64,000 nucleotides of DNA from Escherichia phage Ec_Makalu_003, in sequence record MN882349.1. One strand, written 5' to 3'. Numbering within the stretch: the first letter of the stretch is position 1; every line of letters starts with the position of its first letter. The translations under genes and the position numbers were made by a program. The notes beneath the pieces were generated by a model. That model was not told the origin of the DNA. It saw only the letters and a program-made list of their open reading frames with translations, and searched no databases. Below, piece after piece: positions 4,605 to 51,184 of this stretch.

Positions 4605-4662
4605 AATATAATCCTCTCGTTGTTAAGTGGGAGTATTATAGCATACTCCCTTCGCATGTCAA
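4605..4662 (-). promoter_or_regulatory. early promoter/stem-loop cassette copy C
   Basis: minus strand TTGACA-N16-TATAAT; palindrome GGGAGTA..TACTCCC encloses the -10. Confidence 0.6.
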
Positions 4663-5837
4663 GCACGAACTTTTTTCTTTACTGCTTTCACCTTCTGGCG
4701 AATTGCTCGAATCTCTTCGATCTCTTTTTCAGTCTCTTTAACAATTTCTTTGCGATTCTGAATATCTGTATCGAGATTATCATCAAGTTTAGGCAGCATG
4801 TCAATCAAGAACTTTTTAAAGTCTTTCAGGTTTCGGATAACCGCACCTTCACCCATTACCGCCACCCCTACACCATCCGGCAGATCACCAAACAGCTTAA
4901 CCAGTTCAGATAGATGATCATGATCCTCTAGTGCTTCTTCCGGTTCAGATGGCAGTTCAACAAAGTTATAACGTTCATCATTGCTGATCAGATGATACCA
5001 GCAAAGCCCGAAAGATTTAGGAGTATATTCTACACCATCAACTTCAACCGCGTCAACACTTCCGAAAGGATCTACTTTAGTTACCTTAAATCCATGTTCC
5101 AGCTTTTGAACAATTTCAATAACATGGCTGGATACGGTTTCAGTGTTAAACCAATGAGGCAAATTATGCTGATTTGGCTTGTAGCGTTCGCCTACTTTAA
5201 ATCGCTGACCTTCCGCTTGCATAGAATGAAATTGATGGTTGGTGATTTCCGCGAAGTATTCAAATTCGCCACCGTCAAACACACAAGCCCATTGATCACA
5301 AAAACGATCTGCCTTAACGGTTTCACCTTTCGCGGTGATCATGGTAGCTGATCCGTGCAATTCTTCTTCAACCAAAAAGCCATATTCGACAAAATCAGCA
5401 AGTTTCATGGCTTCTTTGTGTTCTGGGTCATGCTCTCCCCAGAATCGCTTAAATTCTTGCAAACCTTCTGGGGTAAACGAATAACATTTACCTTTTTCAA
5501 AGTAAGTCGGCATTGCATCCTCTTTCTTGTTCATCGCTTCGTATGCCTCTTTTGAGATACGTTTAAAGTATTTGCGCTCATTGTGCATAATCATAGTAGA
5601 CCAATAATAAACGATATCCTCAGCGGAATAAACTACATCTCCAGCTTCAATAGTAATAACATGACCGTGGTCATCTTTTTCTAATACTTTAAAGCCCTTT
5701 TCTACGATTTCAGCAACTCGAATATGACCACGGCGCGAAGCATCGGTCAGAATAATTGAATAGCGAGAAAAGTCTAGAAACTCATCTTTACCGCCTTCAC
5801 GGAATGCATAGTAATGACCTTCAAAGAATTTAGCCAT
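4659..5837 (-). CDS. hypothetical protein, paralog family member (two repeated domains)
   Basis: 392 aa; shares the 'GFKVL..NERKYFKRI(S/T)K' domain with the 5901..6479 and 6488..6748 products. Confidence 0.6.
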   Translation of the reverse strand: MAKFFEGHYYAFREGGKDEFLDFSRYSIILTDASRRGHIRVAEIVEKGFKVLEKDDHGHVITIEAGDVVYSAEDIVYYWSTMIMHNERKYFKRISKEAYEAMNKKEDAMPTYFEKGKCYSFTPEGLQEFKRFWGEHDPEHKEAMKLADFVEYGFLVEEELHGSATMITAKGETVKADRFCDQWACVFDGGEFEYFAEITNHQFHSMQAEGQRFKVGERYKPNQHNLPHWFNTETVSSHVIEIVQKLEHGFKVTKVDPFGSVDAVEVDGVEYTPKSFGLCWYHLISNDERYNFVELPSEPEEALEDHDHLSELVKLFGDLPDGVGVAVMGEGAVIRNLKDFKKFLIDMLPKLDDNLDTDIQNRKEIVKETEKEIEEIRAIRQKVKAVKKKVRA

Positions 5838-5897
5838 AATATAATCCTCTCGTTGTTTAGATGGGAGTATCTTACTACTCCCGTTTCATCATGTCAA
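5838..5897 (-). promoter_or_regulatory. early promoter/stem-loop cassette copy D
   Basis: minus strand TTGACA-N17-TAAGAT; palindrome GGGAGTA..TACTCCC. Confidence 0.55.
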
Positions 5898-5900
5898 GCG

Positions 5901-6479
5901 TTAAAGTGACTTTTTAATCTCTTTCAGTTCTTCCACTTTCTCGGCGCTGAATTTAGCGTAGGTATCATGTCGAATAATTTCACTTTCAAGAAAGGTTTCC
6001 AGTCGAGATCTATTTTCAATAAGGAACTCTTTCAGGTCTTCCGCGTTCTTGACAAAGATTTTATTGTCGGTAATGTCATCTTCAATCGCAAAGGAGATAG
6101 AGCGAACTTTACCAAACAAGTTAATCAGATCTTCCAGAGATTCTTCTTTCTTAACTGGTTTCATTTCTTCAAACTGCTTTTTAGTGATGCGTTTAAAGTA
6201 TTTGCGCTCGTTTGCAGCAATCAGAACAGATGCACCTTCATACCCATGAGTTTCTACCAGATACACACGCCCCATCGCATCAACAGTGAGAACTTTAAAG
6301 CCGTTACAAAGCACGTCATACAAGAACTTATTATGTTGCGGACATCGTTTGATAAATTCTGCGGCTGTTTCTGCACTACGGAAAGTGTAATAACGACCTC
6401 GTTCAAAAACAGCATCATTTGAAGACTTAGCCGGATACAATTTATACGTTTTCTGTACCATAATATAATCCTCTATCAT
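5901..6479 (-). CDS. hypothetical protein, paralog family member
   Basis: 192 aa; shares 'NERKYFKRITK' and an identical 20-nt DNA stretch with 4659..5837. Confidence 0.6.
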   Translation of the reverse strand: MIEDYIMVQKTYKLYPAKSSNDAVFERGRYYTFRSAETAAEFIKRCPQHNKFLYDVLCNGFKVLTVDAMGRVYLVETHGYEGASVLIAANERKYFKRITKKQFEEMKPVKKEESLEDLINLFGKVRSISFAIEDDITDNKIFVKNAEDLKEFLIENRSRLETFLESEIIRHDTYAKFSAEKVEELKEIKKSL

Positions 6480-6487
6480 TTCACTAA

Positions 6488-6748
6488 TTAAACAGCACGG
6501 AACAGAATGCGCTCACACGGAAGCAGCATAAATTCCCAACGCGGGTCAAAGTCTTTAGCGGTGTATGTTTTCCCATCAACCGCTATTTCACTTACATAAC
6601 CAACAGGTGACACTTTAAGAACAGTAAACCCATTCTTGATGACTTCGTAGGTATCTTTCACCCCTTCGTATTCATCATCTAAGAAGTCTTTATGTGCTTG
6701 CTCAGATTTAAAAACATAGGCCACACCAGCTTTAAACATCTTACGCAT
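6488..6748 (-). CDS. hypothetical protein, short paralog family member
   Basis: 86 aa; 'NGFTVLKV..DG..YT' resembles the repeated domain of its neighbours. Confidence 0.5.
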   Translation of the reverse strand: MRKMFKAGVAYVFKSEQAHKDFLDDEYEGVKDTYEVIKNGFTVLKVSPVGYVSEIAVDGKTYTAKDFDPRWEFMLLPCERILFRAV

Positions 6749-11044: not shown

Positions 11045-11282
11045 AGTTTACCCACTCAACAAGATCTTTACCTAACTCAAAAGCCCATTCTCGGTCTTGC
11101 TTTACGTTTTGTAGGTATGGACTTTCCGACACTCGACGAAGTGATGTTGTCGTAACAAGAATGACCCCATGAATGGTCGGATGCTCCTTACCATATACAA
11201 TCGGACGGGAATCCCTTTCGACACCTTGTAAGAAGGTGTATCCTGAATCATTCAGCAACAAATACATTTTCGGTTCGTTCAT
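10944..11282 (-). CDS. hypothetical protein
   Basis: 112-aa ORF. Confidence 0.4.
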   Translation of the reverse strand: MNEPKMYLLLNDSGYTFLQGVERDSRPIVYGKEHPTIHGVILVTTTSLRRVSESPYLQNVKQDREWAFELGKDLVEWVNCEDKNQRNHEKKIARLEHRRKLDEIKNRILQSM

Positions 11283-11542
11283 TACAGCTTCCTCAACCAG
11301 TTATTAAAGCGAGCAAACAATGATGCTTTTCGTGCTTCTTCTTCGGCTTTGCACGCACGCAAACCACTGAAACACCATTCATAATCATCACTGAAACATG
11401 ATTCAACAGGAACACCCGCATTTCGTAGTTCTCTGGTCGTTATCATAAATCCTTGACATAATGGGCGACCTTCAACAATGATAGGAAGTTTAACTTTTTT
11501 CATGAAAGTATACCCAGCACGGTCAATAATTTCAATCTTCAT
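11282..11542 (-). CDS. small protein, 'GY(T/S)FMK..LPIIVEGRP' family copy 1
   Basis: 86 aa; paralog of 11561..11764 and 14117..14338. Confidence 0.55.
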   Translation of the reverse strand: MKIEIIDRAGYTFMKKVKLPIIVEGRPLCQGFMITTRELRNAGVPVESCFSDDYEWCFSGLRACKAEEEARKASLFARFNNWLRKL

Positions 11543-11560
11543 AATATAATCCTCAATTAA

Positions 11561-11764
11561 TTACACTGCCCAGGCTTCTTTGCTAAGAAAACACCATTTA
11601 TACTCAGGAGAATAACCTTTAATCGCTACGCCAGCTTTTTGCAATTCCTGCGTTTCAACAACATAATCAAGCCCATACGGTCGACCTTCCACGATGATAG
11701 GAAGTTCAACGCCTTTCATGAAAGAATATCCGCCATCGTCAAAAATTTCAATTTTAATTTTCAT
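11561..11764 (-). CDS. small protein, same family copy 2
   Basis: 67 aa; 'GGYSFMKGVELPIIVEGRP'. Confidence 0.55.
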   Translation of the reverse strand: MKIKIEIFDDGGYSFMKGVELPIIVEGRPYGLDYVVETQELQKAGVAIKGYSPEYKWCFLSKEAWAV

Positions 11765-13279: not shown

Positions 13280-14059
13280 TTACACGCGAGCACCGTAGAT
13301 CGTGCCTACTTTATCCCAGCGAGGGGCATTGCCAGTAACAGCCTTACCAGCCGCCCCGCCATTATATTCCGATCCCTGTCCACGGATATTACATTTACCA
13401 CCAGCACCGCCAGCATCACCACCGTTACCGCCATTATATACACCGTTGACAGACCCTTTACCTGGCGCGGAAATAGTACCAGCAGTAGCACCCCGTTCCA
13501 TATTAGCAGACCCTCCAGCAGCACCAAACGGACGACCGCCGCCACCACCAAAGGTTAATTTCATTTGTGACATAGGAGACCAGTATCCGCCGCCACCGCC
13601 GCCACCGCCACCGCAAATAGCGCCGTTATTTGTGATGCGTAAGCGTGTGCCTATACCGTTGTTAATTGCATTACCACCAGCACCACCAGCGGAGTTATTG
13701 CCACCATTACCACCACGCCCCCAAACATGAACACCGGGGTTAATGATCAATGTTACATATTCGTTTGTTAACGAGCTAGGGAAGTCAAGACAAGGAACGC
13801 CAGTAGAATGGGAAACAATATTACCTGTGATAGTAATTACTACCGGAGTAGATCCTTGTGCTTTCATCCAGTTAATAAGAGTGTCTTTATTGTAAGAGTC
13901 ACTAGCGCCAATGCTATAATGAATCTCTTTAGAGCGTCCGACCATCGCTGACATATACGCCGGACGGCCTAAGCGTACAGCTTGCATTGCGGCGCTCATC
14001 CACCGTTGACCTGTTTCTGATACGGCAGATGAACCGACCCACCCAGAAGATATTGCCAT
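13280..14059 (-). CDS. glycine-rich low-complexity protein of unknown function
   Basis: 259 aa; structured N-terminal ~110 aa, then GG(N/A)GG repeats including a run of nine Gly; local GC content visibly above neighbours. Confidence 0.6.
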   Translation of the reverse strand: MAISSGWVGSSAVSETGQRWMSAAMQAVRLGRPAYMSAMVGRSKEIHYSIGASDSYNKDTLINWMKAQGSTPVVITITGNIVSHSTGVPCLDFPSSLTNEYVTLIINPGVHVWGRGGNGGNNSAGGAGGNAINNGIGTRLRITNNGAICGGGGGGGGGYWSPMSQMKLTFGGGGGRPFGAAGGSANMERGATAGTISAPGKGSVNGVYNGGNGGDAGGAGGKCNIRGQGSEYNGGAAGKAVTGNAPRWDKVGTIYGARV

Positions 14060-26625: not shown

Positions 26626-26844
26626 TTATTTATATCGCTTTCTCTCGCGACGTTTTTGATCTTCTTCCTTGATAGAGTTAAATGCATCAAAAAGACACAT
26701 GACACTAATAATAAACATAACCGTATTTTCTACGATATCCCACGGCTTCGCATCAGTACAGATCCCCCAAACGGTAAGAAATGCAAATAAGGCAGAAGAG
26801 ATCACAAGCATGATACTTGCTAAGATATAAAAGGTCATCTTCAT
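26626..26844 (-). CDS. small membrane protein
   Basis: 72 aa; two TM helices; basic C-tail 'KRRERKRYK'. Confidence 0.45.
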   Translation of the reverse strand: MKMTFYILASIMLVISSALFAFLTVWGICTDAKPWDIVENTVMFIISVMCLFDAFNSIKEEDQKRRERKRYK

Positions 26845-34695: not shown

Positions 34696-35268
34696 TTGAT
34701 GGTTGAAATTCTTCCTATGAGTTCAAAATTGGAGGATATCAGCGAGCGAGAAATCTTTGAGGTGGTGTTCTCTTATAAGGCAACGCCACCTGATGAAAAT
34801 ACCACATACACGATTAAAGAGTTTAAGATCAGCGAGTATCGCCCTAATAAGGGCGTTACCGTTGAAGAAACTAAAATATCTGGTGAGTATCGGGATAGTT
34901 TTTCGCTTGGCGCGGATTCTCTTAAATATATAACGAAAGATCGAATTAAAAAATCTGCCGGAAGTTTTGATGATTTACCAGATCCAACTACAGCAGATCT
35001 ATATTATTTTAACGCTCCTACACGTCTACAGGAGGTTTATACTTATAAAGTAACCCTAACCTATATCCAATCTGTTTCAGAGTCTTCTGGTGGTTCAGGT
35101 GAAGGAAATAGTGGTGGTTCTAACAGTCGAGAGGGTGCTGGTGAAACTAATCCGCCTCCGGTAGTAACCGAACACACAATAGAGAAAGTTTATACTCAAA
35201 CTGTTTTTGGAAATTGGGATGTGTGGAGTAAACAGTTAAGAGATTATGTTAGAAGAAGTGAGGGATAA
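34696..35268 (+). CDS. hypothetical protein in gene 5-6 interval (T4 5.1 position)
   Basis: 190 aa; Ser/Gly-rich linker. Confidence 0.6.
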   Translation: MMVEILPMSSKLEDISEREIFEVVFSYKATPPDENTTYTIKEFKISEYRPNKGVTVEETKISGEYRDSFSLGADSLKYITKDRIKKSAGSFDDLPDPTTADLYYFNAPTRLQEVYTYKVTLTYIQSVSESSGGSGEGNSGGSNSREGAGETNPPPVVTEHTIEKVYTQTVFGNWDVWSKQLRDYVRRSEG

Positions 35269-35269
35269 T

Positions 35270-35809
35270 ATGATTGAAGTAATTCATTACACCAAAGAAG
35301 ATGAAATTTTATATAATAGACTACATGAACTATTTTATGAAGTTGATGGAAAGGTTTATAGAAGGTTCTCTCGTGGGCGTTCTAAAGCAGGAAGTCTAGT
35401 TGGTGGATTGAAGATAAATCCGTGTGGATATAGATATTGGAGACTTGCTGTTGATGGTAAAGAGTTTCAGAGGTCTCATGTTGTTTATCATATGCATCAC
35501 GGACACACTCCAAGAAAACCACTACAAATAGATCATATTAACACAAACTCCCTTGACGACCGAGTTAGCAATTTAAGACCAGCAACCGTTACTCAACAAA
35601 TGTACAACCAAAATAAACAATCCGATTGCACATCTTCATATATTGGTGTTAATTGGAATAAAAACTCCAAAAAATGGGAAGCTAGAATTAGAGTTAATGG
35701 AAAACGAATCCGTTTAGGTCTATTTGATAATGAAATTGACGCTGCGATTGCCTATAACACCGCTGCATTATCTAGAGATTCAAAAGTTAACAAATTAAAC
35801 GATGTATGA
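35270..35809 (+). CDS. free-standing HNH homing endonuclease with AP2 DNA-binding domain
   Basis: HNH motif 'HHGHTPRKPLQIDHINTNSLDDRVSNLR'; AP2-like 'YIGVNWNKNSKKWEARIRVNGKRIRLGLFDNEIDAAIAYNTAA'; AT-rich codon usage; start taken at the Met after GAGGGA RBS (track ORF begins 35246). Confidence 0.8.
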   Translation: MIEVIHYTKEDEILYNRLHELFYEVDGKVYRRFSRGRSKAGSLVGGLKINPCGYRYWRLAVDGKEFQRSHVVYHMHHGHTPRKPLQIDHINTNSLDDRVSNLRPATVTQQMYNQNKQSDCTSSYIGVNWNKNSKKWEARIRVNGKRIRLGLFDNEIDAAIAYNTAALSRDSKVNKLNDV

Positions 35810-35824
35810 ATATGGGGGTGTTTA

Positions 35825-36118
35825 ATGGCTGGATTATCCTACGATAAAGCTAAAACTACAGGGCACGGAAACTACCCACCTACGGTAATTAATGCAACTC
35901 AATCTAAGGTATTTGTTGAGGGTATCCCTGTATTAGTCGAAGGAGACCCAATTACACCACATACAAAAACAACAAAACCTTATGATACACACGGGGGAAC
36001 TACGGTCGCCAGTACCCCGAAAGTATTTGTTACCGGAAAGAAAGCAATTCAAATGGCAGATCGTATTAGCTGTGGCGATACCGTCGCTATGGCATCACCG
36101 AAGGTATTCATAAAATGA
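35825..36118 (+). CDS. 5.4: PAAR-repeat spike-tip protein gp5.4
   Basis: 97 aa; PAAR-type repeats. Confidence 0.8.
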
Positions 36119-41000: not shown

Positions 41001-41102
41001 TCATTCTCTATGTTCCGTGAACTTGTAGATAAACGGTTGAAGGATAATATAGGGAATCCACGCGATCCGAAGAATCCGACACAGAGGAAAATTAATGGCT
41101 AA
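38016..41102 (+). CDS. 7: baseplate wedge protein gp7
   Basis: 1028 aa (T4 gp7 is about 1032). Confidence 0.85.
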   Translation: MIKAPSVTSLTIEKLSANQAYITWDDVGENFFYFVELAETRTRDGEIIPVDELSWVNLGYTADQNWFEDKNLFPEYYYKFRVAVAAEGFEQSKWIETEEFQTFKTNAYNFSMMREFNLANEFIKEKFTYDNREYVKFNTDLIQASLMKEDFVFSPEYANMTNISNYIVVDENFHEIQDHIEKVCTDINRTMLAEMNGVLYLFERFQPIVKVSNDKGQSWKAYKAFNDRVGNPVSRTCVYQSKTTTYVLGYDRIFYGRQASDTRWSADDVRFSDDTITFAKVGDENDLGFDVEVFGVFSRLTGDTTKYAEAMACSDDYLWVGAKDVIRRIRLKNTPVDTVQGSPTFGEKIFDPDIIRVTGNDKAVIQKMDVVDGKLLVFVTGEVKQRYQDPTKPENVVPSDDAGVYLIGSDGLSFQRVFGNTPQEREYIQHGFSNMSTNGDEVFISHYNHHFESILPDPETAAKYELGEAVKYSQEPTYLTDKKIHQTTFRASYDDLRIWELGPQAYYNEADYTWMRRNGVRVWITNDNRPLVVYPEVIYTQEVDTSGILDQNRVNREVYDKGTVTCYLNNVKFEGFKQYASGVMFHKNTGEIIGFYQFNYRVRDQVGVYWKPTNVAFVAELQNQVREVPWVPVHYDREQDPDLRPLLNKMTPDSFLLENENFRKFSEYYLQFLSDGSGTYYNKLKNLIKNKYPREQDAYEYLWSEMNKRNIYADKNKRDAVVRFFESRKSDFYSTKGVEASYKFLFKLLYNEDVEIEVESQAGLEYDIVVSSTNIDEDIVGRTIYTPTGRANVTYLEREYEGGRLRWRVTIHNLIGRFEEGQVIKSEKTAFEGMILVGVRGKELLSSSIDYINRSRSQYTMKIKSALPVSRYANDVMRFVHPVGFGFIGVTLLTMFINSGLSMKHTETIIQSLKNYKFDSGLPSVYPDRVADLDVDGNIKKDPLTGKALYLTSPLIGEEFPVPPEYDQENSELFHGLKASERRFAMSPLFDQSAVSFSMFRELVDKRLKDNIGNPRDPKNPTQRKING

Positions 41103-42090
41103 TGAAAATAGTGTGATCTATCGCTCAATCATTACTAGTAAATTCAGAACGGAAAAACTTCTGAATTTCTATAATTCTGTAGGCGATGGGGCAAATCAAA
41201 TTACAATTTATGGAACGTTTGGACGTTCGGAGCCGTGGTCAGAAAACGAAAAAGAGGTGGGCTTTGCCCCACCTTATCCGACCGATTCAACGGCTGGTGT
41301 TGTTGACATGTGGACCCATATGATGGGGGCGGTTAAGATTAATAAATCACTTCTTGATGCGGTTATCCCTCGTAAAGATTGGGGTGATACCGGACAGGAT
41401 AACCCGCGCACATTCTTTATCAATGACATTGTTGTTGTCAACTCAGCACCATATAACCGAACTGATGTTGGTAGCGGCTGGATGGTGTATCGCGTAACCG
41501 ATGTTCCTGATCGCGGTTACTGCTCGATTTCAAGCATTGACGCTAAAGTCGAGTGTTTGAAGTTGGGCGGAAAGTGGACACCTACTCATGAATCAATCGC
41601 GCCACCTGTAGGAAAGGGCGATTCTATTGATATGGGTGATGGGTATCGTTGGGAATATCTGTACACAATTCCACCTGATGCGGCGATCAACCGTTGCACC
41701 AATGAACATATTGTTGTACCGTTCCCCGATGAACTGCGACAAGATCCGGCGCGCTGGGGCTACGACAATGTGATCACATGGTATAATGACTATAATCTGC
41801 TTTATCGGCTGAAAGTAGTAACTTTGCGTTTTCAGGCTTATATGGACTCTGCGCAATTCCCAACTACCGCGTTAGTGGGTAATACTGGTTTCCGTCAGTT
41901 AAGCATTATCCTTAACCCATTGGAAAAGAAAGCACGCCCTAGCGATCCAGACGTTAAAGCGGTTCAAGATAAGTACCGTCCGCAAGACTTAGAGCCACAC
42001 TCAGGCGAAATGATCTACATGGAAAACCGACAACCTATCGTTCGGTCATTAGATCAAACAGAACTTGTTTCTGTACTGTTTGAGTTCTAA
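41095..42090 (+). CDS. 8: baseplate wedge protein gp8
   Basis: 331 aa; canonical order. Confidence 0.85.
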   Translation: MANENSVIYRSIITSKFRTEKLLNFYNSVGDGANQITIYGTFGRSEPWSENEKEVGFAPPYPTDSTAGVVDMWTHMMGAVKINKSLLDAVIPRKDWGDTGQDNPRTFFINDIVVVNSAPYNRTDVGSGWMVYRVTDVPDRGYCSISSIDAKVECLKLGGKWTPTHESIAPPVGKGDSIDMGDGYRWEYLYTIPPDAAINRCTNEHIVVPFPDELRQDPARWGYDNVITWYNDYNLLYRLKVVTLRFQAYMDSAQFPTTALVGNTGFRQLSIILNPLEKKARPSDPDVKAVQDKYRPQDLEPHSGEMIYMENRQPIVRSLDQTELVSVLFEF

Positions 42091-42199: not shown

Positions 42200-42457
42200 A
42201 TGGCACGTCGTAAATTTACAGATAATTGTGAAGCAATTCAGGTATCCCCTTGCGGTTGGGATGTGATCGCGAAAGGTGAAAAGATCGGAGAGATCATCGA
42301 TCATACTCATTCATCACTAGCCGATTACACCGATGAACTGTGGGAGGGTATCAACTTCATGAATGACACTAAACGATTCAAGACTATCGACGAAGCTATC
42401 TATTTTGTGTATAATCCAACTTTCGGTATGTGGACTGATAGAAAATGGCACGCGTAA
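42200..42457 (+). CDS. cassette protein 1, unknown function
   Basis: 85 aa; begins MAR; ends '..MWTDRKWHA'. Confidence 0.55.
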   Translation: MARRKFTDNCEAIQVSPCGWDVIAKGEKIGEIIDHTHSSLADYTDELWEGINFMNDTKRFKTIDEAIYFVYNPTFGMWTDRKWHA

Positions 42458-42774
42458 ATATTAAACGGCATTATACAATGGGTAAACCAAAACATCCAAT
42501 GCATAAAGTGTTTTGGGGCTTACATCTTCAAGAAAAATGGCATGATAACTATTGGTTTTGTGACCATGATAAGAAGTGGCATTCTCAAGATGAAGTTAAT
42601 GCGATGATGGAACAGGGTATAAAGTTTAATTACTCTAATTATGACCATAGCATTACTTGTATTCGAAAATTGAAACGGTTTATTCGAAAGAATCCACAAT
42701 TTAAAAACTTTGTGTTCTTTATGTCTCATGTTTATTTGGGGCATAGCGTTACCGTAACAGCAAAGGTTAAATAA
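42445..42774 (+). CDS. cassette protein 2, Trp/His-rich, unknown function
   Basis: 109 aa; 'EKWHDNYWFCDHDKKWH' repeats the W..KWH motif. Confidence 0.55.
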   Translation: MARVNIKRHYTMGKPKHPMHKVFWGLHLQEKWHDNYWFCDHDKKWHSQDEVNAMMEQGIKFNYSNYDHSITCIRKLKRFIRKNPQFKNFVFFMSHVYLGHSVTVTAKVK

Positions 42775-43613
42775 TGGCACGACTTTCCAAACAAGAACAA
42801 AAATTACACGATCGGGCAATGGAGCTAATCAATTCAGACCGCCCATTGACATATGAAGAAAAGGAGTTTTGCTATAATAACTATCATGGAGATGGTCTAG
42901 GTGGTTCCGGTGCATTCTTTACCCCAGAGGGGCTTGCGTGGGATTTTACCATTGACGCACACTGCACCGGAAAAGTATTAGATTTGTGTGCTGGGATCGG
43001 TCGCTTATCTTTCTGTATGTTACATCGATGCAGACCAGAAAAGATCGTATGCGTCGAACTCAATCCAGAATTTTCGCGGATTGGCAAGCGACTATTACCG
43101 GAGGCAGAATGGATCACCAGCGATATATTCGAATTTGAGTCAAACGAAAAATTCGATGTGGTGATCAGCAATCCACCTTTCGGTAAAATCAATACAACCG
43201 ACACAAAGGATGTATTTGAATACACAGGCGGCGAATTTGAATTTAAGGTTATGACGTTAGGCCAGAAGTTTTCCGATGTAGGTTATTTTATTGTTCCTTC
43301 TGGTTCCGCTGGGTTTGCGTATTCTGGTAGACCTTATTATGATGGATCAGTGAAGTCTAATAAATATCTAAAGTGGAGCAAACAAACTGGCCTTGTGACT
43401 TATGCCGGATGTGGGATCGATACATCAATTTATCGCGATGAATGGCACTGCACCAACGTTTTAACAGAAGTGGTTGAGGTTCGGTATTACGAGAAAGAAG
43501 CCGTAGAAGCGCCTAAATCGCGTCCTAACGAACAAATAGAAGAAAGTAAGGAGATTACCTTACCAGAACAGGAAAGCGAGTCTGGGACGCTCTCAGACTT
43601 GTTTGACATTTAA
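42774..43613 (+). CDS. amino-methyltransferase, probably gamma-class N6-adenine DNA methyltransferase
   Basis: 279 aa; motif X 'FFTPE', motif I 'VLDLCAGIGRL', motif IV 'ISNPPFGK' in that order. Confidence 0.7.
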   Translation: MARLSKQEQKLHDRAMELINSDRPLTYEEKEFCYNNYHGDGLGGSGAFFTPEGLAWDFTIDAHCTGKVLDLCAGIGRLSFCMLHRCRPEKIVCVELNPEFSRIGKRLLPEAEWITSDIFEFESNEKFDVVISNPPFGKINTTDTKDVFEYTGGEFEFKVMTLGQKFSDVGYFIVPSGSAGFAYSGRPYYDGSVKSNKYLKWSKQTGLVTYAGCGIDTSIYRDEWHCTNVLTEVVEVRYYEKEAVEAPKSRPNEQIEESKEITLPEQESESGTLSDLFDI

Positions 43614-43688: not shown

Positions 43689-44543
43689 ATGGCACAAGTT
43701 CCAAAGAAAAGAATAGACACAGGTACTGTCGGCAATCCATCGACTGGCGATATCTTATATGATGGCGGTAATAAAATTAACGATAACTTTGATTCAATAT
43801 ATGACGCATTTGCTGATCAGCGGTTTAAAGACGTAGACCACGGCGTGGGAAGAATGGTTATTCATGCAACCGGATACTATCAGAAGCATCCACGTCAAAG
43901 CTACGCTGGTTCCGCTGTTGAGATTGGGAGTCTACACGATATCGATACAACTCAAGGCGCACTTATTGCTATTCTACCTAAAGCAAAGGTCGGCGAGGGT
44001 GTTGTATTCATAAATAGTAACGGTAGCCTTTCAACGACTACACCGCTCAATATTCGAACTCAAGCAGGTGATTCTATTAGCGGGTATTCTGGTGATGCTA
44101 CAATAACACAACCATTTTCAAAAGTCACTGTTTGGTGTACTGCCGTTGAAGGTAGTCGCGTAACGTGGCGATTGGGTATCGAAAGTATGTTTACCGATAC
44201 AACAACGCCATTGGATAAAACAGTTAACGTAACTGGAGTAGCAACAAACGTTGCTATTGCCGCAAAAACAGAATACGTTTCCATCAAATTATTAACTACC
44301 GCTAGCAATACATCCGGTTCAAAAATGCGTTCAAGTGAAACGCTACTGATGATTGATTCTAAAGCCGGAAAAGTTTATGCGACGGAATATGCAGTTTTGC
44401 AGAAGACAGAAGATGAACTATACACGGTTCGTTATTTCATCGGTTCCGGCGATAAAGTATATGCAGAGTATAAGGCTACTGGCGAAAATATTCGTTTAGC
44501 AGTTAAAGCCGTAGACACTATTAAAATCGGGGTTGCTACATGA
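43689..44543 (+). CDS. 9: baseplate wedge / long-tail-fibre socket protein gp9
   Basis: 284 aa; 'GNPSTGDILYDGGNKIN' N-terminus. Confidence 0.85.
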   Translation: MAQVPKKRIDTGTVGNPSTGDILYDGGNKINDNFDSIYDAFADQRFKDVDHGVGRMVIHATGYYQKHPRQSYAGSAVEIGSLHDIDTTQGALIAILPKAKVGEGVVFINSNGSLSTTTPLNIRTQAGDSISGYSGDATITQPFSKVTVWCTAVEGSRVTWRLGIESMFTDTTTPLDKTVNVTGVATNVAIAAKTEYVSIKLLTTASNTSGSKMRSSETLLMIDSKAGKVYATEYAVLQKTEDELYTVRYFIGSGDKVYAEYKATGENIRLAVKAVDTIKIGVAT

Positions 44544-46999: not shown

Positions 47000-48400
47000 A
47001 TGTCAAACAATACTATTAACCATGTAAAAGACGATGCTCAATACGTCAAGTTTAACCCTGTAAATGATTGGCCTCAAAGCATTACCAACGTACAAGCGGC
47101 TTTAGCCGCTATTAATGGCTTTGCCGTAAATGGATTACCGGACGCTACGGAAGATACAGCCGGGATCGCTGCAATCGCAACTCAGGAAGAAGTAAACGAC
47201 GGGGTAGTAGACAATAAGATCGTGACTCCAAAAACACTGGCTGTTAAAATGTCACGTCCAGATGCTACAAAAGAAGTAAAAGGCATTACCCGATTTGCCA
47301 CAATGGAAGAATCGCTGCAAGAGAGCAACGAGAACATGGCAATCGGTCCAGACACACTAAACCATTACTTCACCACTAAAAAGGCGTCAGAGAGCGTTCA
47401 GGGGACTATTAAGATATGTTCTCTTGAGGCGGCAAAGATTGGCAGTGATGACACAATGGCAGTAACACCGAAAAAGATGCACACTGCCATTGCACAGATT
47501 GTACCGGGATTAATTCCAGATCAAAACACAGCAACCGAAAGCGCACAGGGTTTAGTTCAGTTAGCAACCAGTGCGCAGGTTTTACAAGGCCAGATTCGAG
47601 AAGGTTTTGCAATTAGTCCTTATGCATTTGCAAATGCTCGCGCCAATGAGAATCAGGCGGGTACTGTTAAGATCGCCAGTCAGTCACAGATGAATGCTGG
47701 TTCAGATGATACTGTAGTTGTTTCTGCTAAGAAGTTTGCAAGCACTAAGGCAACAACGTCTCAATACGGTATTGTTAAACTACGAGACACCGTAGGAAGT
47801 GAGGCTAATGCTGCACTATCAGCAAATGCTAAGGTTCTTCCTAGCACTGGCGGTACGGTAAGCGGAAACGTCTATAAAGGTTCAAACTCAGACGGCAACC
47901 AGTTTGTTACTAAAAATGAATTAGCGAATCACGCAATGCCAATTGGTGGTATTATCCTTTCTGGATTCAATGCCGACCGAGGTGACTTTCTGATCTGTAA
48001 TGGTCGTTCACTGAATAAAAATCAATATCCGCAATTATTTTCTGCGATTGGTTATACCTTTGGTGGTTCAGGTGACAATTTTAACATTCCTGATATGCGC
48101 GGTTTAGTTGCTCGTGGTTGCGATCATGGAAGAAACCTTGATCCAGGTCGTCGATTTGGTTCTTATCAAGAAGACGCAATGCAGAGAATTACTGGTAAAT
48201 TCCCTGTAGCTGACCGCTGGCGCGGTTGGTATGGTGGCGCATTTACTGCACAGCGCGGTCAATGGAGCACGAACTATAAAAATGGTGGGGGTGATGATTG
48301 GGGTTCTACTGTTAACTTTGACTCAGGAAGATCCGTAAGAACGGCTAACGAGACTCGCGTCAAGAGTCTGGCATTAAACTATATCATAAGGGTGCGCTAA
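47000..48400 (+). CDS. 12: short tail fibre protein gp12
   Basis: 466 aa; N-terminus 'MSNNT..YVKF' and C-terminal 'NIPDMRGLVARG' region. Confidence 0.85.
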   Translation: MSNNTINHVKDDAQYVKFNPVNDWPQSITNVQAALAAINGFAVNGLPDATEDTAGIAAIATQEEVNDGVVDNKIVTPKTLAVKMSRPDATKEVKGITRFATMEESLQESNENMAIGPDTLNHYFTTKKASESVQGTIKICSLEAAKIGSDDTMAVTPKKMHTAIAQIVPGLIPDQNTATESAQGLVQLATSAQVLQGQIREGFAISPYAFANARANENQAGTVKIASQSQMNAGSDDTVVVSAKKFASTKATTSQYGIVKLRDTVGSEANAALSANAKVLPSTGGTVSGNVYKGSNSDGNQFVTKNELANHAMPIGGIILSGFNADRGDFLICNGRSLNKNQYPQLFSAIGYTFGGSGDNFNIPDMRGLVARGCDHGRNLDPGRRFGSYQEDAMQRITGKFPVADRWRGWYGGAFTAQRGQWSTNYKNGGGDDWGSTVNFDSGRSVRTANETRVKSLALNYIIRVR

Positions 48401-50169
48401 TGATTGAACAATTAAACATCCACGAGATCCCACATGTTGACGGTGTACCAAGCGAAGGACAGCACCGTATTAATTGGATCAAGAATGGCGAATGTTTAAG
48501 CGCAGCAACGACACAGACTGGCAATGACGGGACGCTTAACCGCGCCCCGGTTGCAATTCAAGAAAACGTTGCACGCGTAAACGAAAACGCAAAATCAACC
48601 GTCTCTAAAGTTAACGAGGTTGTAACGGCGGTTAACGATATTAAAACAACTTTAGGGGTAATTTCTGACGGAAGTATCATTGATGTGGTTAACCAGACTG
48701 TCGCAAAAGTTGAATCCGTCGAAGAGAACTTAGGAGAAACAGCAAGAACTCTGCAAACAACGGTAGACGCTGTATCAGAACTTAACATCAAGATTGGTGA
48801 TCGCCCCGCTGCCGATCCGAGCACAAGAACAATCTATGATGACATTTCTTTCATCAAACAAGAAATGGGTTCTTATCCTAACTTTAATATCAATGGTTCC
48901 CCTGATGCTGGCAGTTCCGGTTCTGGCATCAAATACCGAGTTATTCAGAATACCGCAGCATTAAATGACCACGGTCGCCGAATCGTTCAGCTTGAAAACG
49001 ACTGGCAAGATTCTGACGTAGGCGAGTTAACAAGACAAGTTAACAAAATGCGCAGTGAGATCGGCGACACGTCTCTTGCCACACAAGAAAATGTGTATGT
49101 TCGTCTCCGCACCAACGCAAGAAACATTGCTAACCTATCAAACGAAGTTCTAGAAGTCAAGAAAGCAATTTTGTTTGATTCAATCCCTGATATCGGGACT
49201 AAAGTCACTACGCTGGGCACTAATTATGAACTTCTAAACAATGATGTTAATGGTGTAGATTCCGGTATTCGTCCTCGTCTTCTGGCTGTCGAGAATAAGA
49301 TCGGAACGCCTCAATCGGCTGGAAGCATTGATTATCGATTAACCAACACAGAGCGAGAATTTTTAGATCTTAAACAGGTTGTTGGTGTAAGCGGTGCTGA
49401 CGGTTTGCGCGGTGAAGTTGTTCGACTTTCCAATGAGATTGGCACTGACAGCGATCGACATACTCTAGCCGGACGTATTAAAGTTGTAGAAAACACTCAG
49501 GGTCGGTTAGAAGCAAGCGTACAGGACATGGAGCAGATTGTAGGTGATCGCGAATCAGGTTTGACCGCTGGCGTCATTAAACTATCAAGTGATATCTATG
49601 GTGATGATGGTTCAGAAGATCCATTTACTCAGAAAGGCGTGATTAAAATCGTCAAAGAGCTACAAACATCTAACGGAAACAAAGTAGATGATGTACCTGA
49701 TGACGGTTTCCATTATCTGCGTAAGCGCGGAGAATGGGTGCAAGTTGCATATGCTGCTGGATCATTTAAAAATACCGCAGATATTACGGTTGAACTTGAC
49801 GAACAGGATGTTTATAAACAGATTCCACTTAACGACATGGCGGCAGAAGTTAATGCTCGTCAAATGGTGAAAAGTGAATCTGTTGTCACCGTTCAGGACA
49901 AAGGTTTATTCCGTTGTGTATTCCGTTGTGCTGTACAAGCTCAACATAATGCAACATTCACTGTTGCGATTTTCAAAAATGGACAGATGGTATATGAAGC
50001 GAAAAATGGTCATTACGGCACAGACGAATTGATCAGCTATTCTACCAGTGCTTTCCTAAATATTGAAAAGGGAGATCAGATTAACATCCGTATTAAGGGT
50101 GTATCTGCCGAAGCAGTAGCACAGCCAGTACAAATTAAAGAGTTCCTCTTTGGGATTTCTCCGGTATAA
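48400..50169 (+). CDS. wac: fibritin (whisker) with extra C-terminal domain
   Basis: 589 aa; 'DGVPSEGQHRINWIKNGE' N-terminus, coiled-coil body, foldon-like 'DDGFHYLRKRGEWVQV', then about 130 further residues. Confidence 0.85.
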   Translation: MIEQLNIHEIPHVDGVPSEGQHRINWIKNGECLSAATTQTGNDGTLNRAPVAIQENVARVNENAKSTVSKVNEVVTAVNDIKTTLGVISDGSIIDVVNQTVAKVESVEENLGETARTLQTTVDAVSELNIKIGDRPAADPSTRTIYDDISFIKQEMGSYPNFNINGSPDAGSSGSGIKYRVIQNTAALNDHGRRIVQLENDWQDSDVGELTRQVNKMRSEIGDTSLATQENVYVRLRTNARNIANLSNEVLEVKKAILFDSIPDIGTKVTTLGTNYELLNNDVNGVDSGIRPRLLAVENKIGTPQSAGSIDYRLTNTEREFLDLKQVVGVSGADGLRGEVVRLSNEIGTDSDRHTLAGRIKVVENTQGRLEASVQDMEQIVGDRESGLTAGVIKLSSDIYGDDGSEDPFTQKGVIKIVKELQTSNGNKVDDVPDDGFHYLRKRGEWVQVAYAAGSFKNTADITVELDEQDVYKQIPLNDMAAEVNARQMVKSESVVTVQDKGLFRCVFRCAVQAQHNATFTVAIFKNGQMVYEAKNGHYGTDELISYSTSAFLNIEKGDQINIRIKGVSAEAVAQPVQIKEFLFGISPV

Positions 50170-50175
50170 GAAATT

Positions 50176-50198
50176 AAAGGGGCGTTAAGCCCCTTTTT
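50176..50198 (+). terminator. rho-independent terminator after wac
   Basis: GGGGC-GTTA-AGCCCC hairpin followed by TTTTT. Confidence 0.6.
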
Positions 50199-50215
50199 CG
50201 TTTATAGGTGATATT

Positions 50216-51148
50216 ATGTCAGGATATGTAACCAATAACCCAAGAGAATTAAAAGACGCTATTCTGCGTCGTTTAGGCGCACCAGTGATTAACGTAGAAG
50301 TAACAGAAGACCAGATTTACGATTGTATTCAGAGAGCACTAGAACTCTATGGGGAATATCATTTCGATGGTGTGAATAAAGGATATAAAGTATTTCGTGT
50401 TAGCGCAGAGCAAGCACAACACGGGGTATTTGATTTAAGCGATTCTGGGGTATTCGCAGTAACTAAAATTATTCGAACAAACGTAGGTAGCGCGGCTACG
50501 ATGGATGGCACTGCCGTTTATCCGTGGTTTACCGACTTTCTGTTGGGTTTAGCGGGTGTAAATGGCGGTCTAGGATCTGGATGTAGTAAATTTTATGGTC
50601 CAAATGCAATGGGCGGTGATCTAGGATATTTCGAACAGCTTATGAGCTATCGAGCCACTATGCAAAATATGCTCAATCCGCTGCCAGATTATTGGTATAA
50701 CAGCGCAAACGGACAACTTAAGATAACAGGAAACTTCCGAGAAGGTGATCTCATTGTTGTTGAATTATATGTTAAAAGCTATGTAGACGTTCCTGATATG
50801 ATCGGCGCGGTTGCTGGTTATGCTCATGCGGGAGGATGTTCTACCGCTGGAGGAATTAGTGCCGTTTATGATAATCCAACTGCTGGTTTAAGCGGGATTG
50901 TTGCTGGCATGGGACCGATCAGTGAGAACAAGCAGGGCGCATATAATAACCGTTGGGTTAAAGACATGGCAACCGCTTTCACTAAGGAGGTGTGGGGGTC
51001 CATCATGGCTAAACATCAAGGTCTGCAATTACCCGGCGGTGTCACTGTTGATGGTATCCGAATCATTGAAGAAGCACGCGCCGACATTGAGAAATTGCGA
51101 CAAGAACTAGAATTATTAGATCCTCCGTTCGGCATCCTCATGATTTGA
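50216..51148 (+). CDS. 13: neck protein gp13
   Basis: 310 aa; canonical order. Confidence 0.8.
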
Positions 51149-51184
51149 TTTATTGGGGGAGTATTCCCCCATTTGGAGTAACAT

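Follow-up and report, generated by a model that had tools for sequence, protein, structure and literature searches.

A predicted C1q/TNF-type head follows an internal foldon hairpin in the fibritin of an RB49-like coliphage

The window analysed here is a stretch of 64,000 nucleotides from Escherichia phage Ec_Makalu_003 (MN882349.1), an RB49-like coliphage of the genus Krischvirus. Its wac gene (48400-50169, plus strand) encodes a protein of 589 amino acids followed by a stop codon, the fibritin of the neck whiskers and collar. The gene is located between those of gp12 (short tail fibre) and gp13 (neck), which is the position of a T4-type fibritin. The gap between wac and gp13 is 46 nt, without an intervening chaperone gene, and the same gp12-wac-gp13 order was found in distant relatives. 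The features of the locus are as follows.

47000-48400, plus strand: gp12 short tail fibre gene, upstream neighbour (Pfam Collar, E = 1.6e-16; gp12 annotation in RB49, JSE and others)
48400-50169, plus strand: wac, fibritin (PHROG 1056 'fibritin neck whisker', E = 8.7e-187, aa 1-581)
48400-48549, plus strand: N-terminal neck (gp13)-binding domain, approximately aa 1-50 (alignment to T4 fibritin fragments)
48550-49677, plus strand: fibrous shaft, approximately aa 51-426, homologue of the T4 segmented coiled coil (HMMER against T4 fibritin)
49678-49758, plus strand: foldon-like segment NKVDDVPDDGFHYLRKRGEWVQVAYAA, aa 427-453, internal and not terminal (T4 foldon alignment, end of Fibritin_C)
49759-50166, plus strand: C-terminal head, aa 454-589, predicted C1q/TNF-type beta jelly-roll (AlphaFold2, Foldseek)
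49825-50128, plus strand: distal part of the head, exchanged by homologous recombination among Krischviruses (breakpoints, dS)
50216-51148, plus strand: gp13 neck protein gene, downstream neighbour (gp13 annotation in RB49 and relatives)

HMMER aligned T4 fibritin (2bsg) continuously with Wac residues 6-426 (E = 1.7e-49), and the N-terminal T4 fragments 1ox3 and 2ibl with residues 7-83 (E ~1e-15). The N-terminal domain is the most conserved part of Wac among its relatives (mean entropy 0.70, omega 0.06), and domain III of gp13 is the binding partner of the fibritin N-terminus in work on T4 (PMC12929629). Residues 368-451 match Pfam Fibritin_C (PF07921) at 104.9 bits, above the gathering score of 21 (E = 2.6e-30), and the match spans positions 2-92 of the 93 in the profile. 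Judged from these alignments, Wac is a T4-type fibritin, but one without a C-terminus of the T4/JS98 type, since 140 residues lie beyond the foldon motif (aa 450-589, nt 49747-50166; stop codon at 50167-50169). The initial annotation had described about 130 such residues; the extension is real and its length was slightly undercounted. The interval first marked for it (49768-50169) is in frame, begins at residue 457, so that the first seven residues of the extension are left out, and takes in the stop codon.

The foldon is a widely used trimerisation tag. In Wac, the corresponding motif DDGFHYLRKRGEWVQV occupies residues 434-449 (nt 49699-49746). The T4 foldon aligned to the motif with a local BLOSUM62 score of 58, compared with 23.6 ± 3.5 for 5000 shuffles of the Wac protein, none of which (0/5000) reached 58. 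HMMER aligned Wac residues 425-449 to residues 456-480 of T4 fibritin; the foldon tags of engineered haemagglutinins were matched as well. According to the HMMER alignment, from which the T4 residue numbers were read, the T4 core residues P463, D465, G466, Y469, R471, K472, G474, E475, W476, and V477 are kept in Wac as P433, D435, G436, Y439, R441, K442, G444, E445, W446, and V447, while the flanks of the hairpin differ (GYIPE in T4 and NKVDD in Wac on one side, STFL and AYAA on the other). The AlphaFold2 model contains beta-hairpin strands at residues 439-442 and 445-448 (pLDDT ~65), and the pattern P-x-D-G-x-x-Y-x-R-K-x-G-x-W is preserved in the fibritins of Serratia, Erwinia, and Klebsiella phages. 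The foldon-like motif recognised in the initial annotation thus aligns to the T4 foldon far above the shuffled background and lies within the Fibritin_C match, and on sequence grounds the segment is a true foldon homologue. Two foldon-like matches on the minus strand of the window (6551-6601, score 45, and 6618-6668, score 42) were regarded as chance matches: the Trp hairpin is missing from both, and the frame of one is full of stop codons.

The head is all-beta in the AlphaFold2 model, with a block mean pLDDT of 84-97 (86.6 for the whole model) and approximately 11 strands after the hairpin. The beta-strand-like character and the added globular domain proposed from the letters alone were borne out, with a confident predicted fold in place of disorder. 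Foldseek returned 230 PDB matches at E <= 1e-3, C1q/TNF-like heads first, and these included BxpB, ExsFA, Cbln1/4, C1QL, collagen X NC1, EDA, and APRIL (E ~2e-6, probability 1.0); the target-normalised TM values of the top matches were 0.57-0.75. Structure prediction and Foldseek gave the same C1q/TNF-like outcome for a divergent homologue (P0020). At the profile level, Pfam BclA_C (PF18573) matched six of nine head sequences (best 2.7e-7) and C1q (PF00386) four of the nine, all under the gathering score: the window head scored 22.3 bits against 38 for BclA_C and 16.5 against 23.7 for C1q, and the best relative reached 27.9 bits. NCBIfam gave no match to the head, and the family profile searches turned up neither a lectin family nor a lectin motif in it. 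Searched against the sequences of the PDB, the head and its profile found nothing usable, and one match, to CTLA-4 (E = 0.56), was rejected. The head is predicted with confidence to be a compact C1q/TNF-type beta jelly-roll of 136-140 residues. The domain, its predicted folding and its fold class come from the present analysis, and no assignment of a C1q/TNF fold to the RB49-type fibritin head was found in the literature searched.

The window wac gene is 98.9% identical in nucleotides to that of RB49 over its whole length and 99.7% to that of Ec_Makalu_001, with 21 nucleotide differences from RB49 over the interval 48400-50300. The last 140 residues of Wac share 95.7% amino acid identity with RB49, whose gpwac (AAP04366.2) has the same length of 589 residues and the same position between gp12 and gp13. 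An RB49-type fibritin with an expanded C-terminal domain has already been published (PMC3797505; PMC9569957). Among the fibritins of T4, JS98, RB49, RB43, and AehI, only those of T4 and JS98 trimerise by the small foldon alone (Letarov & Krisch 2013, PMC3797505). Those of RB49, RB43, and AehI require, for folding and trimerisation, either extra sequences in an expanded C-terminal domain or a gene located downstream, and the complete fibritin is reportedly a trimer (PMC3797505). The need of the extension for folding and trimerisation is taken from this literature. The Wac C-terminus is of the RB49 type; an expanded end of this kind being already known, the finding is real but ordinary.

A comparison with the fibritins of related phages, put forward in the initial annotation, showed the layout of hairpin and head to be shared by RB49 and other genera. 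Fibritins of 588-591 residues with hairpin and head in the gp12-wac-gp13 slot were found on metagenomic T4-like contigs and in phages of Serratia (92A1, 4S, and PS2), Erwinia (Cronus), and Klebsiella (Jiaodavirus KP179 and JD18). In these Serratia, Erwinia, and Klebsiella fibritins, a foldon-like hairpin is followed by a beta-rich domain of approximately 140 residues that ends with an I/V-x-P motif, as in Wac, and the heads are only 20-30% identical. Searches with tblastn linked the heads of Krischvirus and 92A1 (3e-11), 92A1 and Cronus (2e-3), and Cronus and KP179 (4e-6), and hhalign aligned the Krischvirus-type heads in register with those of Cronus and Jiaodavirus (E = 3.3e-5, probability 72%). 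The link between the heads of the Krischvirus/Serratia and Cronus/Jiaodavirus groups is moderate, and they probably, though not certainly, share descent. The closest head outside Krischvirus is that of Serratia phage 92A1. A more speculative possibility is that fibritins of the Straboviridae originally ended in a hairpin with a head, and that the T4 foldon is the remnant after loss of the head.

The relatives of Wac were gathered with the full-length protein as the query and not with the head alone. Word-indexed homologue searches with the 140-residue head or its alignment returned only two fragments of 110 residues. An exhaustive phmmer search of 1.84 billion representatives, with the head as the query, yielded only two genuine matches (P0003 and P0019); seven others were long repeat proteins (NHL-like, cadherin-like), each matching over several short stretches, and were discarded as spurious. 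PF28231 is listed for some of the Wac relatives. Phage Skers was considered as a phage without wac; gp13 is missing there too and the record is approximately 10 kb short, so that it is probably incomplete.

The head is under purifying selection (omega ~0.15). Hypervariable loops were sought in it and none were found (entropy of 0.62 in loops versus 0.53 in strands). Among close relatives, identity is 83% in the head and 72% in the shaft, so that the head is no more variable of the two, and its second half is highly conserved. A stretch of 24 residues, NGHYGTDELISYSTSAFLNIEKGD (aa 534-557), which includes a predicted surface loop, is nearly constant down to an overall identity of approximately 60%, and this near-constancy suggests a functional surface. 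The low omega, the even variability and the conserved second half fit an invariant partner within the virion or a structural role.

Alleles of the head have been exchanged. ECD7 is window-like up to nt 49824 and then JSE-like from 49827 to 50128, and the switch point of Makalu_002 is between nt 49862 and 49869, which places the breakpoints at residues ~476 and ~489, inside the head. For the window phage and ECD7, dS amounts to 0.03 over the shaft and 0.68 over the head; for JSE and ECD7, the shaft gives 1.70 and the head 0.14. Recombination among Krischviruses has exchanged the distal two-thirds to three-quarters of the head. The gp12 and wac genes form one block with 55-84% nucleotide identity between Krischvirus lineages, compared with mostly 94-100% for gp13; across all 57 Krischvirus records carrying gp13, its nucleotide identity is 90-98%. 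The divergence of the gp12-wac block could alternatively mean that both proteins face the host.

Fibritin governs the attachment and deployment of the long tail fibres in T4-like phages, and the established C1q/TNF-type heads of trimeric fibres exist only as trimers, from which assembly of the fibre starts. The reading we favour, with moderate confidence, is that a trimeric head nucleates and caps the whisker and probably touches the long tail fibres of the same phage. We infer that three copies of the head, one per fibritin chain, would pack into the globular tip of each whisker or collar fibre. The hairpin and head would act as a C-terminal nucleus that sets the three chains in register, and the coiled-coil shaft would then fold from the C-terminus; the C1q-type heads of collagen VIII/X and of Bacillus BclA are analogous nuclei. 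In the assembled virion, the head would be the surface that the whisker offers to a partner, most probably the long tail fibre of the phage itself during attachment and retraction, as for the C-terminus of T4 fibritin. In T4, contact with the long tail fibre is ascribed to the fibritin C-terminus (PMC3797505), and covariance of gpwac with gp36 has been described (Letarov et al. 2005, as cited in PMC3797505 and PMC9569957).

Within Krischvirus, no co-variation was found between the head alleles and the knee proteins gp35 and gp36. Head alleles that are 20-25% apart are found in phages whose gp36 and gp35 hardly differ, the gp36 of the recombinants ECD7 and JK32 is 99.8% identical to that of RB49, and genus-wide identities are 86-100% for gp36 and 94-100% for gp35. 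Because gp35 and gp36 are near-identical despite the divergent heads, a contact of the head with gp35/gp36 has no support at the level of alleles. The gp36 of RB49 is unusually long (496 aa), and full-length matches to it were found only in Krischvirus, the Serratia phages 92A1 and WSPA, and one more record. Phage 92A1 combines such a match with the closest head outside Krischvirus.

The initial annotation had proposed a carbohydrate-binding or sensing module at the whisker tips. As a host-surface adhesin, the head would let the phage attach reversibly, at one more site, to LPS, O-antigen or capsule, which we regard as unlikely. The fold does occur in receptor-binding heads of phages, including 4rgg (receptor-binding protein of lactococcal phage 1358, GlcNAc-1P), 8ke9 (carbohydrate-binding domain of the short tail fibre of cyanophage A-1(L)), and 9eul (central spike knob of phi812), and many phage tail-fibre and collagen-repeat proteins in BFVD terminate in C1q-like heads. 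TNF-like domains are also among the recurrent C-terminal carbohydrate-binding modules of Klebsiella phage receptor-binding proteins (2026 preprint, 10.64898/2026.05.12.724579). Furthermore, wac shares its divergent, recombining block with the gene of the LPS-binding gp12, and host recognition was suggested for the AehI-type fibritin by Letarov & Krisch (PMC3797505). The low omega, the loops that are not hypervariable, a variability no greater than that of the shaft and the lack of any detected lectin family or motif argue against an adhesin. In addition, the host range of RB49-like phages is credited to the long-tail-fibre adhesin (PMC9569957), and the gp38 adhesin is present in the window. 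The published tie of the extension to folding and trimerisation (PMC3797505) also points away from a glycan-binding role. Glycan binding by the head, to which these observations lend no direct support, is a possible but unlikely function. It is improbable that the whiskers of RB49-like phages serve as auxiliary adhesins or surface sensors, with the C1q-like head as a second contact with the host that binds a bacterial glycan and with allele exchange alongside gp12 tuning adsorption or host range.

The head could also be a cap for folding and stability only, without a partner, in which case any contact with the long tail fibre would be made by the hairpin or shaft. The literature statement is limited to folding and trimerisation (PMC3797505), co-variation with gp35/gp36 is absent, and the chimeric heads with breakpoints inside the domain are evidently viable, which is easy to accommodate if only the fold counts. 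On the other hand, the near-constant NGHYGTDELISYSTSAFLNIEKGD suggests a functional surface, and the C-terminus of T4 fibritin is implicated in long-tail-fibre contact (PMC3797505); we give this explanation a low probability. That the extension is no real domain, but a product of read-through, of fusion with an ORF downstream, or simply disordered, can practically be dismissed. Nothing was found in its favour: the 589-residue frame is intact in all 57 Krischvirus records, the extension is under purifying selection, folding is predicted with pLDDT above 90, and length and position are conserved in other genera.

The basic picture is unchanged, the expanded C-terminus of RB49 and its folding role having been published before. 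Three points together offer phage structural biologists a concrete hypothesis of how non-T4 whiskers fold and which surface is exposed on them. The foldon hairpin of RB49-like phages, and probably that of many further T4-like genera, is just a connector to a C1q-type head; the bare foldon of T4 therefore looks exceptional; and the distal part of the head moves between lineages through recombination.

T4 fibritin (2bsg, 1aa0, and 1avy) ends a few residues past the foldon, whereas Wac continues for the 140 residues described above, and the RB49 protein, unlike that of T4, is unable to trimerise by the small motif alone (PMC3797505). The C-terminal moiety of RB49 fibritin has been termed 'unrelated' to that of T4 or 'alien' (PMC3797505; PMC9569957); contrary to this label, the window Wac keeps the T4 foldon hairpin, with the head appended to it. 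The heads of BclA, BxpB/ExsFA, collagen VIII/X NC1, C1q, and cerebellin have the same fold as that predicted here and are likewise C-terminal on a three-chain fibre. The stalk of Wac differs in being, by homology with T4, a coiled coil of alpha-helices that carries a foldon hairpin, and not a collagen triple helix.

The neck-whisker gene wac is located between the genes of the short tail fibre and a neck protein.

47000-48400: gp12 (short tail fibre), upstream of wac; 466 aa, matching a phage tail Collar domain and, weakly, the gp12 middle domain
48400..50169, + strand: wac, fibritin; one long ORF of 589 codons
50216-51148: neck protein gp13, downstream of wac; so annotated in every close relative

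PHROGs placed the 589-aa protein, along its entire length, in "fibritin neck whisker" (E = 8.7e-187), and T4 fibritin (2bsg, 3j2o) was aligned to aa 6-426 with HMMER (E = 1.7e-49). The identity of wac is 99.7% to Escherichia phage Ec_Makalu_001 and 98.9% to RB49, and all 57 matching phage records are from the genus Krischvirus (the RB49/JSE group).

The motif DDGFHYLRKRGEWVQV at aa 434-449 (nt 49699-49746) is followed by 140 more residues, designated here as the head. The initial annotation had described about 130 extra residues past a foldon-like motif. Its observation is confirmed with small corrections: the extension is present but is 140 residues long, and the delimited segment is in frame from aa 457 to the stop codon, inclusive. 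Four concordant results indicate that the motif is genuine. The local alignment of the 27-residue T4 foldon with the window protein scored 58, while shuffled sequences gave 23.6 ± 3.5 and none of 5000 scored as high. Pfam Fibritin_C, a profile that ends with the foldon, matched aa 368-451 (E = 2.6e-30, profile positions 2-92 of 93). In the HMMER search, T4 residues 456-480 aligned with aa 425-449, and the foldon tags of engineered haemagglutinins and spike proteins were matched as well. Finally, the hairpin core Y-x-R-K-x-G-E-W-V is kept, with P-x-D-G before it, and its strands were placed at aa 439-442 and 445-448 in the AlphaFold2 model.

This model covers aa 421-589 and was built from an alignment of 13 sequences in which the relatives are 18-96% identical. 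Its pLDDT averages 86.6 overall and 84-97 in ten-residue blocks from aa ~451 on. It has ~11 β-strands and one short helix and indicates a folded globular domain, not a disordered tail. A Foldseek search with this model gave 230 PDB matches at E ≤ 1e-3, headed by C1q/TNF-type jelly-roll heads (E ~2e-6, probability 1.0, target-normalised TM 0.57-0.75). The leading matches are Bacillus exosporium BxpB and ExsFA, cerebellins, C1q-like proteins, collagen X/VIII NC1, EDA, APRIL and 4-1BBL; a few phage receptor-binding or spike knobs (9eul, 4rgg) are also among them. Matches among predicted viral structures are rich in phage fibre proteins ending in the same fold, many with collagen repeats. The sequence profiles agree weakly with this assignment: Pfam BclA_C was detected on six of nine head sequences (best E = 2.7e-7) and C1q on four of the nine, always below the gathering score. 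Neither PDB sequences nor NCBIfam models match the head, and Pfam models do so only below threshold. The model of P0020, a metagenomic fibritin and the most divergent homologue (19% identity in the head), has the same fold and the same top matches, but since the same family makes up most of its alignment, it does not count as an independent test. Confident predictions together with consistent weak profile matches thus point to a C1q/TNF-type fold.

When 1.84 billion representatives were searched exhaustively with phmmer, the head was found only in the Krischvirus cluster and one metagenomic relative, and it appears narrow in sequence space. Seven other matches were repeat proteins and were rejected. 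Two homologous fibritins, P0019 (591 aa, 40% identical overall) and P0020 (588 aa, 29%), occupy the gp12-wac-gp13 slot of T4-like metagenomic contigs. The P0019 C-terminus matches fibritins from three Serratia phages (92A1, WSPA and PS2) and has a weak match in the fibritin of Erwinia phage Cronus. The 92A1 query recovered Krischvirus at 3e-11 and Cronus at 2e-3, and the Cronus query recovered 144 records at ~1e-5, mostly Klebsiella Jiaodavirus. All of these stepwise-linked fibritins are ~590 aa long, with the hairpin followed by a ~140-aa domain. The hairpin plus head therefore seems to be a common terminus of fibritins in Straboviridae, some Tevenvirinae included, and the bare foldon of T4 seems to be the exception. 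The deepest link between the two head groups is only moderately supported; their profile-profile comparison is in register (E = 3.3e-5, probability 72%). In Klebsiella phage KPV15 (KY000080.1, 1179-2944 of the extracted locus), the annotated fibritin is divided into two ORFs (421 and 159 aa), and the latter, an "uncharacterised protein", is the second-best BFVD structural match to the head. The frame changes at the junction and gp13 is likewise split, which suggests that frameshift errors, not a separate head protein, explain the split.

Regional dN/dS values (summed dN / summed dS, seven Krischvirus wac genes) are 0.06 for the N-terminal domain, 0.09 for the shaft, 0.07 for the hairpin and 0.15 for the head, and all four regions are under purifying selection. 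Within the head, predicted strands and loops are similarly variable (entropy 0.53 vs 0.62), and the most conserved part is the second half, including the stretch NGHYGTDELISYSTSAFLNIEKGD. The gp12 and wac genes (47000-50130) form a divergence island with 55-84% nucleotide identity between the RB49 and JSE lineages (JSE and KFS-EC alleles), while the adjacent gp13 is mostly 94-100% identical in the same comparisons and 90-98% identical to the window across all 57 Krischvirus genes. Up to nt 49824 the ECD7 wac is near-identical to the window, and over nt 49827-50128 it is near-identical to JSE; in Makalu_002 the switch falls between nt 49862 and 49869. JK32 combines an RB49-like gp12 with a third wac allele and a JSE-like last 100 nt. 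The mosaic breakpoints lie at nt ~49825, ~49865 and ~48400 in ECD7, Makalu_002 and JK32, respectively, and those of the head exchange fall inside the domain. Thus, at least two transfers between lineages have involved the distal two-thirds to three-quarters of the head. Letarov & Krisch (PMC3797505) argued that fibritins have long ceased to swap their C-terminal modules. Such cessation may hold for exchanges between fibritin types; within the RB49 type, the aligned alleles indicate that exchange is evidently ongoing.

A 187-aa homing-endonuclease-like ORF (35246-35809, +; HNH_3 and AP2) is flanked by the gene that follows gp5 (34696-35268) and by a PAAR-motif gp5.4-like gene (35825-36118), and this ~550-nt insert is absent in the closest relative, Ec_Makalu_001. 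Between gp13 and gp14, an extra ORF is present in ECD7 (annotated SegC), Makalu_002 (SegB) and KFS-EC (a same-sized "hypothetical protein"), and is absent from the window (spacer 51149-51184), RB49 and JK32; JSE has a homing endonuclease after gp14. Three genes (42200-43613, +), two small ORFs and a 279-aa methyltransferase (Pfam MTS, Methyltransf_25, Eco57I-like), are inserted between gp8 (41095-42090) and gp9 (43689-44543) of the baseplate cluster, also in Ec_Makalu_001. Three adjacent ORFs of 392, 192 and 86 aa (4659-6748, -) have no Pfam match and are apparent paralogues, seemingly with 3, 1 and 1 copies of a ~60-aa module judged by eye (G-F-x-V-L...G-x-V...G...Y...F...W). Tandem ORFs of 86 and 67 aa (11282-11764, -) have the common N-terminal pattern MKIxIEIxDxxGYxFMKxVxLPIIVEGRP; near 11537-11678 the window is ~214 nt longer than Ec_Makalu_001, suggesting copy-number variation of a small gene.

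According to work on T4, the fibritin C-terminus contacts the long tail fibre near the knee (PMC3797505), and the account of Letarov et al. given there states that new gpwac C-termini accompany new gp36 C-termini. Since the fibre genes are outside the window, RB49 queries were used. RB49 gp36 (496 aa; 25157-26647 of its fibre locus) is matched by Pfam Phage_T4_gp36 at aa 57-154 only, below threshold, which leaves the greater part of the protein without a family. Its full-length matches are Krischvirus, 92A1, WSPA and one further record. The closest non-Krischvirus head is that of 92A1, which agrees with gpwac-gp36 covariance, although the relatedness of these phages confounds the comparison. 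Among Krischviruses, head alleles did not covary with gp35 or gp36: identities are 86-100% for gp36 and 94-100% for gp35, and the heads of ECD7 and JK32 differ by ~20% from that of the window while their gp36 is 99.8% identical to that of RB49. Head-knee binding, if any, must therefore be through a conserved head surface. Escherichia phage vB_EcoM_Skers (MW748999.1, 154.8 kb) has Krischvirus gp35 and gp36 with wac and gp13 unmatched; the record is ~10 kb shorter than its relatives and is thus probably incomplete, not a whisker-less phage. The window also encodes a 259-aa gp38 tail-fibre adhesin (13280-14059, -; Pfam GP38 E = 5e-72, and Gp38_N) on the opposite strand among small genes of the early region, far from the position of gp34-37 in RB49 (about 145-155 kb in the RB49 genome).

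We infer that the head would be a C1q-type trimer that works together with the hairpin to set the register of the three chains and to cap the whisker; the conserved face of the head would then contact the phage's own long tail fibres. The proposed folding role draws on the published statement on RB49 and on the known behaviour of C1q-type heads in collagens and BclA. The main rival is a glycan-binding adhesin, which draws support from the use of this fold in phage receptor-binding proteins and from the co-divergence with gp12; the selection pattern and the absence of a lectin signature speak against this reading. A pure folding cap without a partner is the other serious rival to a cap that contacts the fibres. 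The initial interpretation is partly supported, as a globular domain, with carbohydrate binding or sensing as a candidate function.

The feature is the already known RB49-type fibritin C-terminus, one of eight types (Letarov & Krisch 2013, PMC3797505). Among the fibritins tested, the small foldon motif alone suffices for trimers only in T4 and JS98; others, including RB49, depend on extra sequences in the enlarged C-terminal domain or on a chaperone encoded downstream (PMC3797505). Therefore, the extra domain and its tie to folding are already published. In the literature searched, where the primary 2005 paper is represented by later citations, neither the foldon hairpin kept before the head nor the C1q/TNF fold was found. 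The modest additions here are the assigned fold, the broader distribution and recombination within the gene. In the T4 foldon, the residues flanking the hairpin help close a small hydrophobic core. The fibritin in the window keeps the hairpin core of T4, and the flanking residues on both sides differ.
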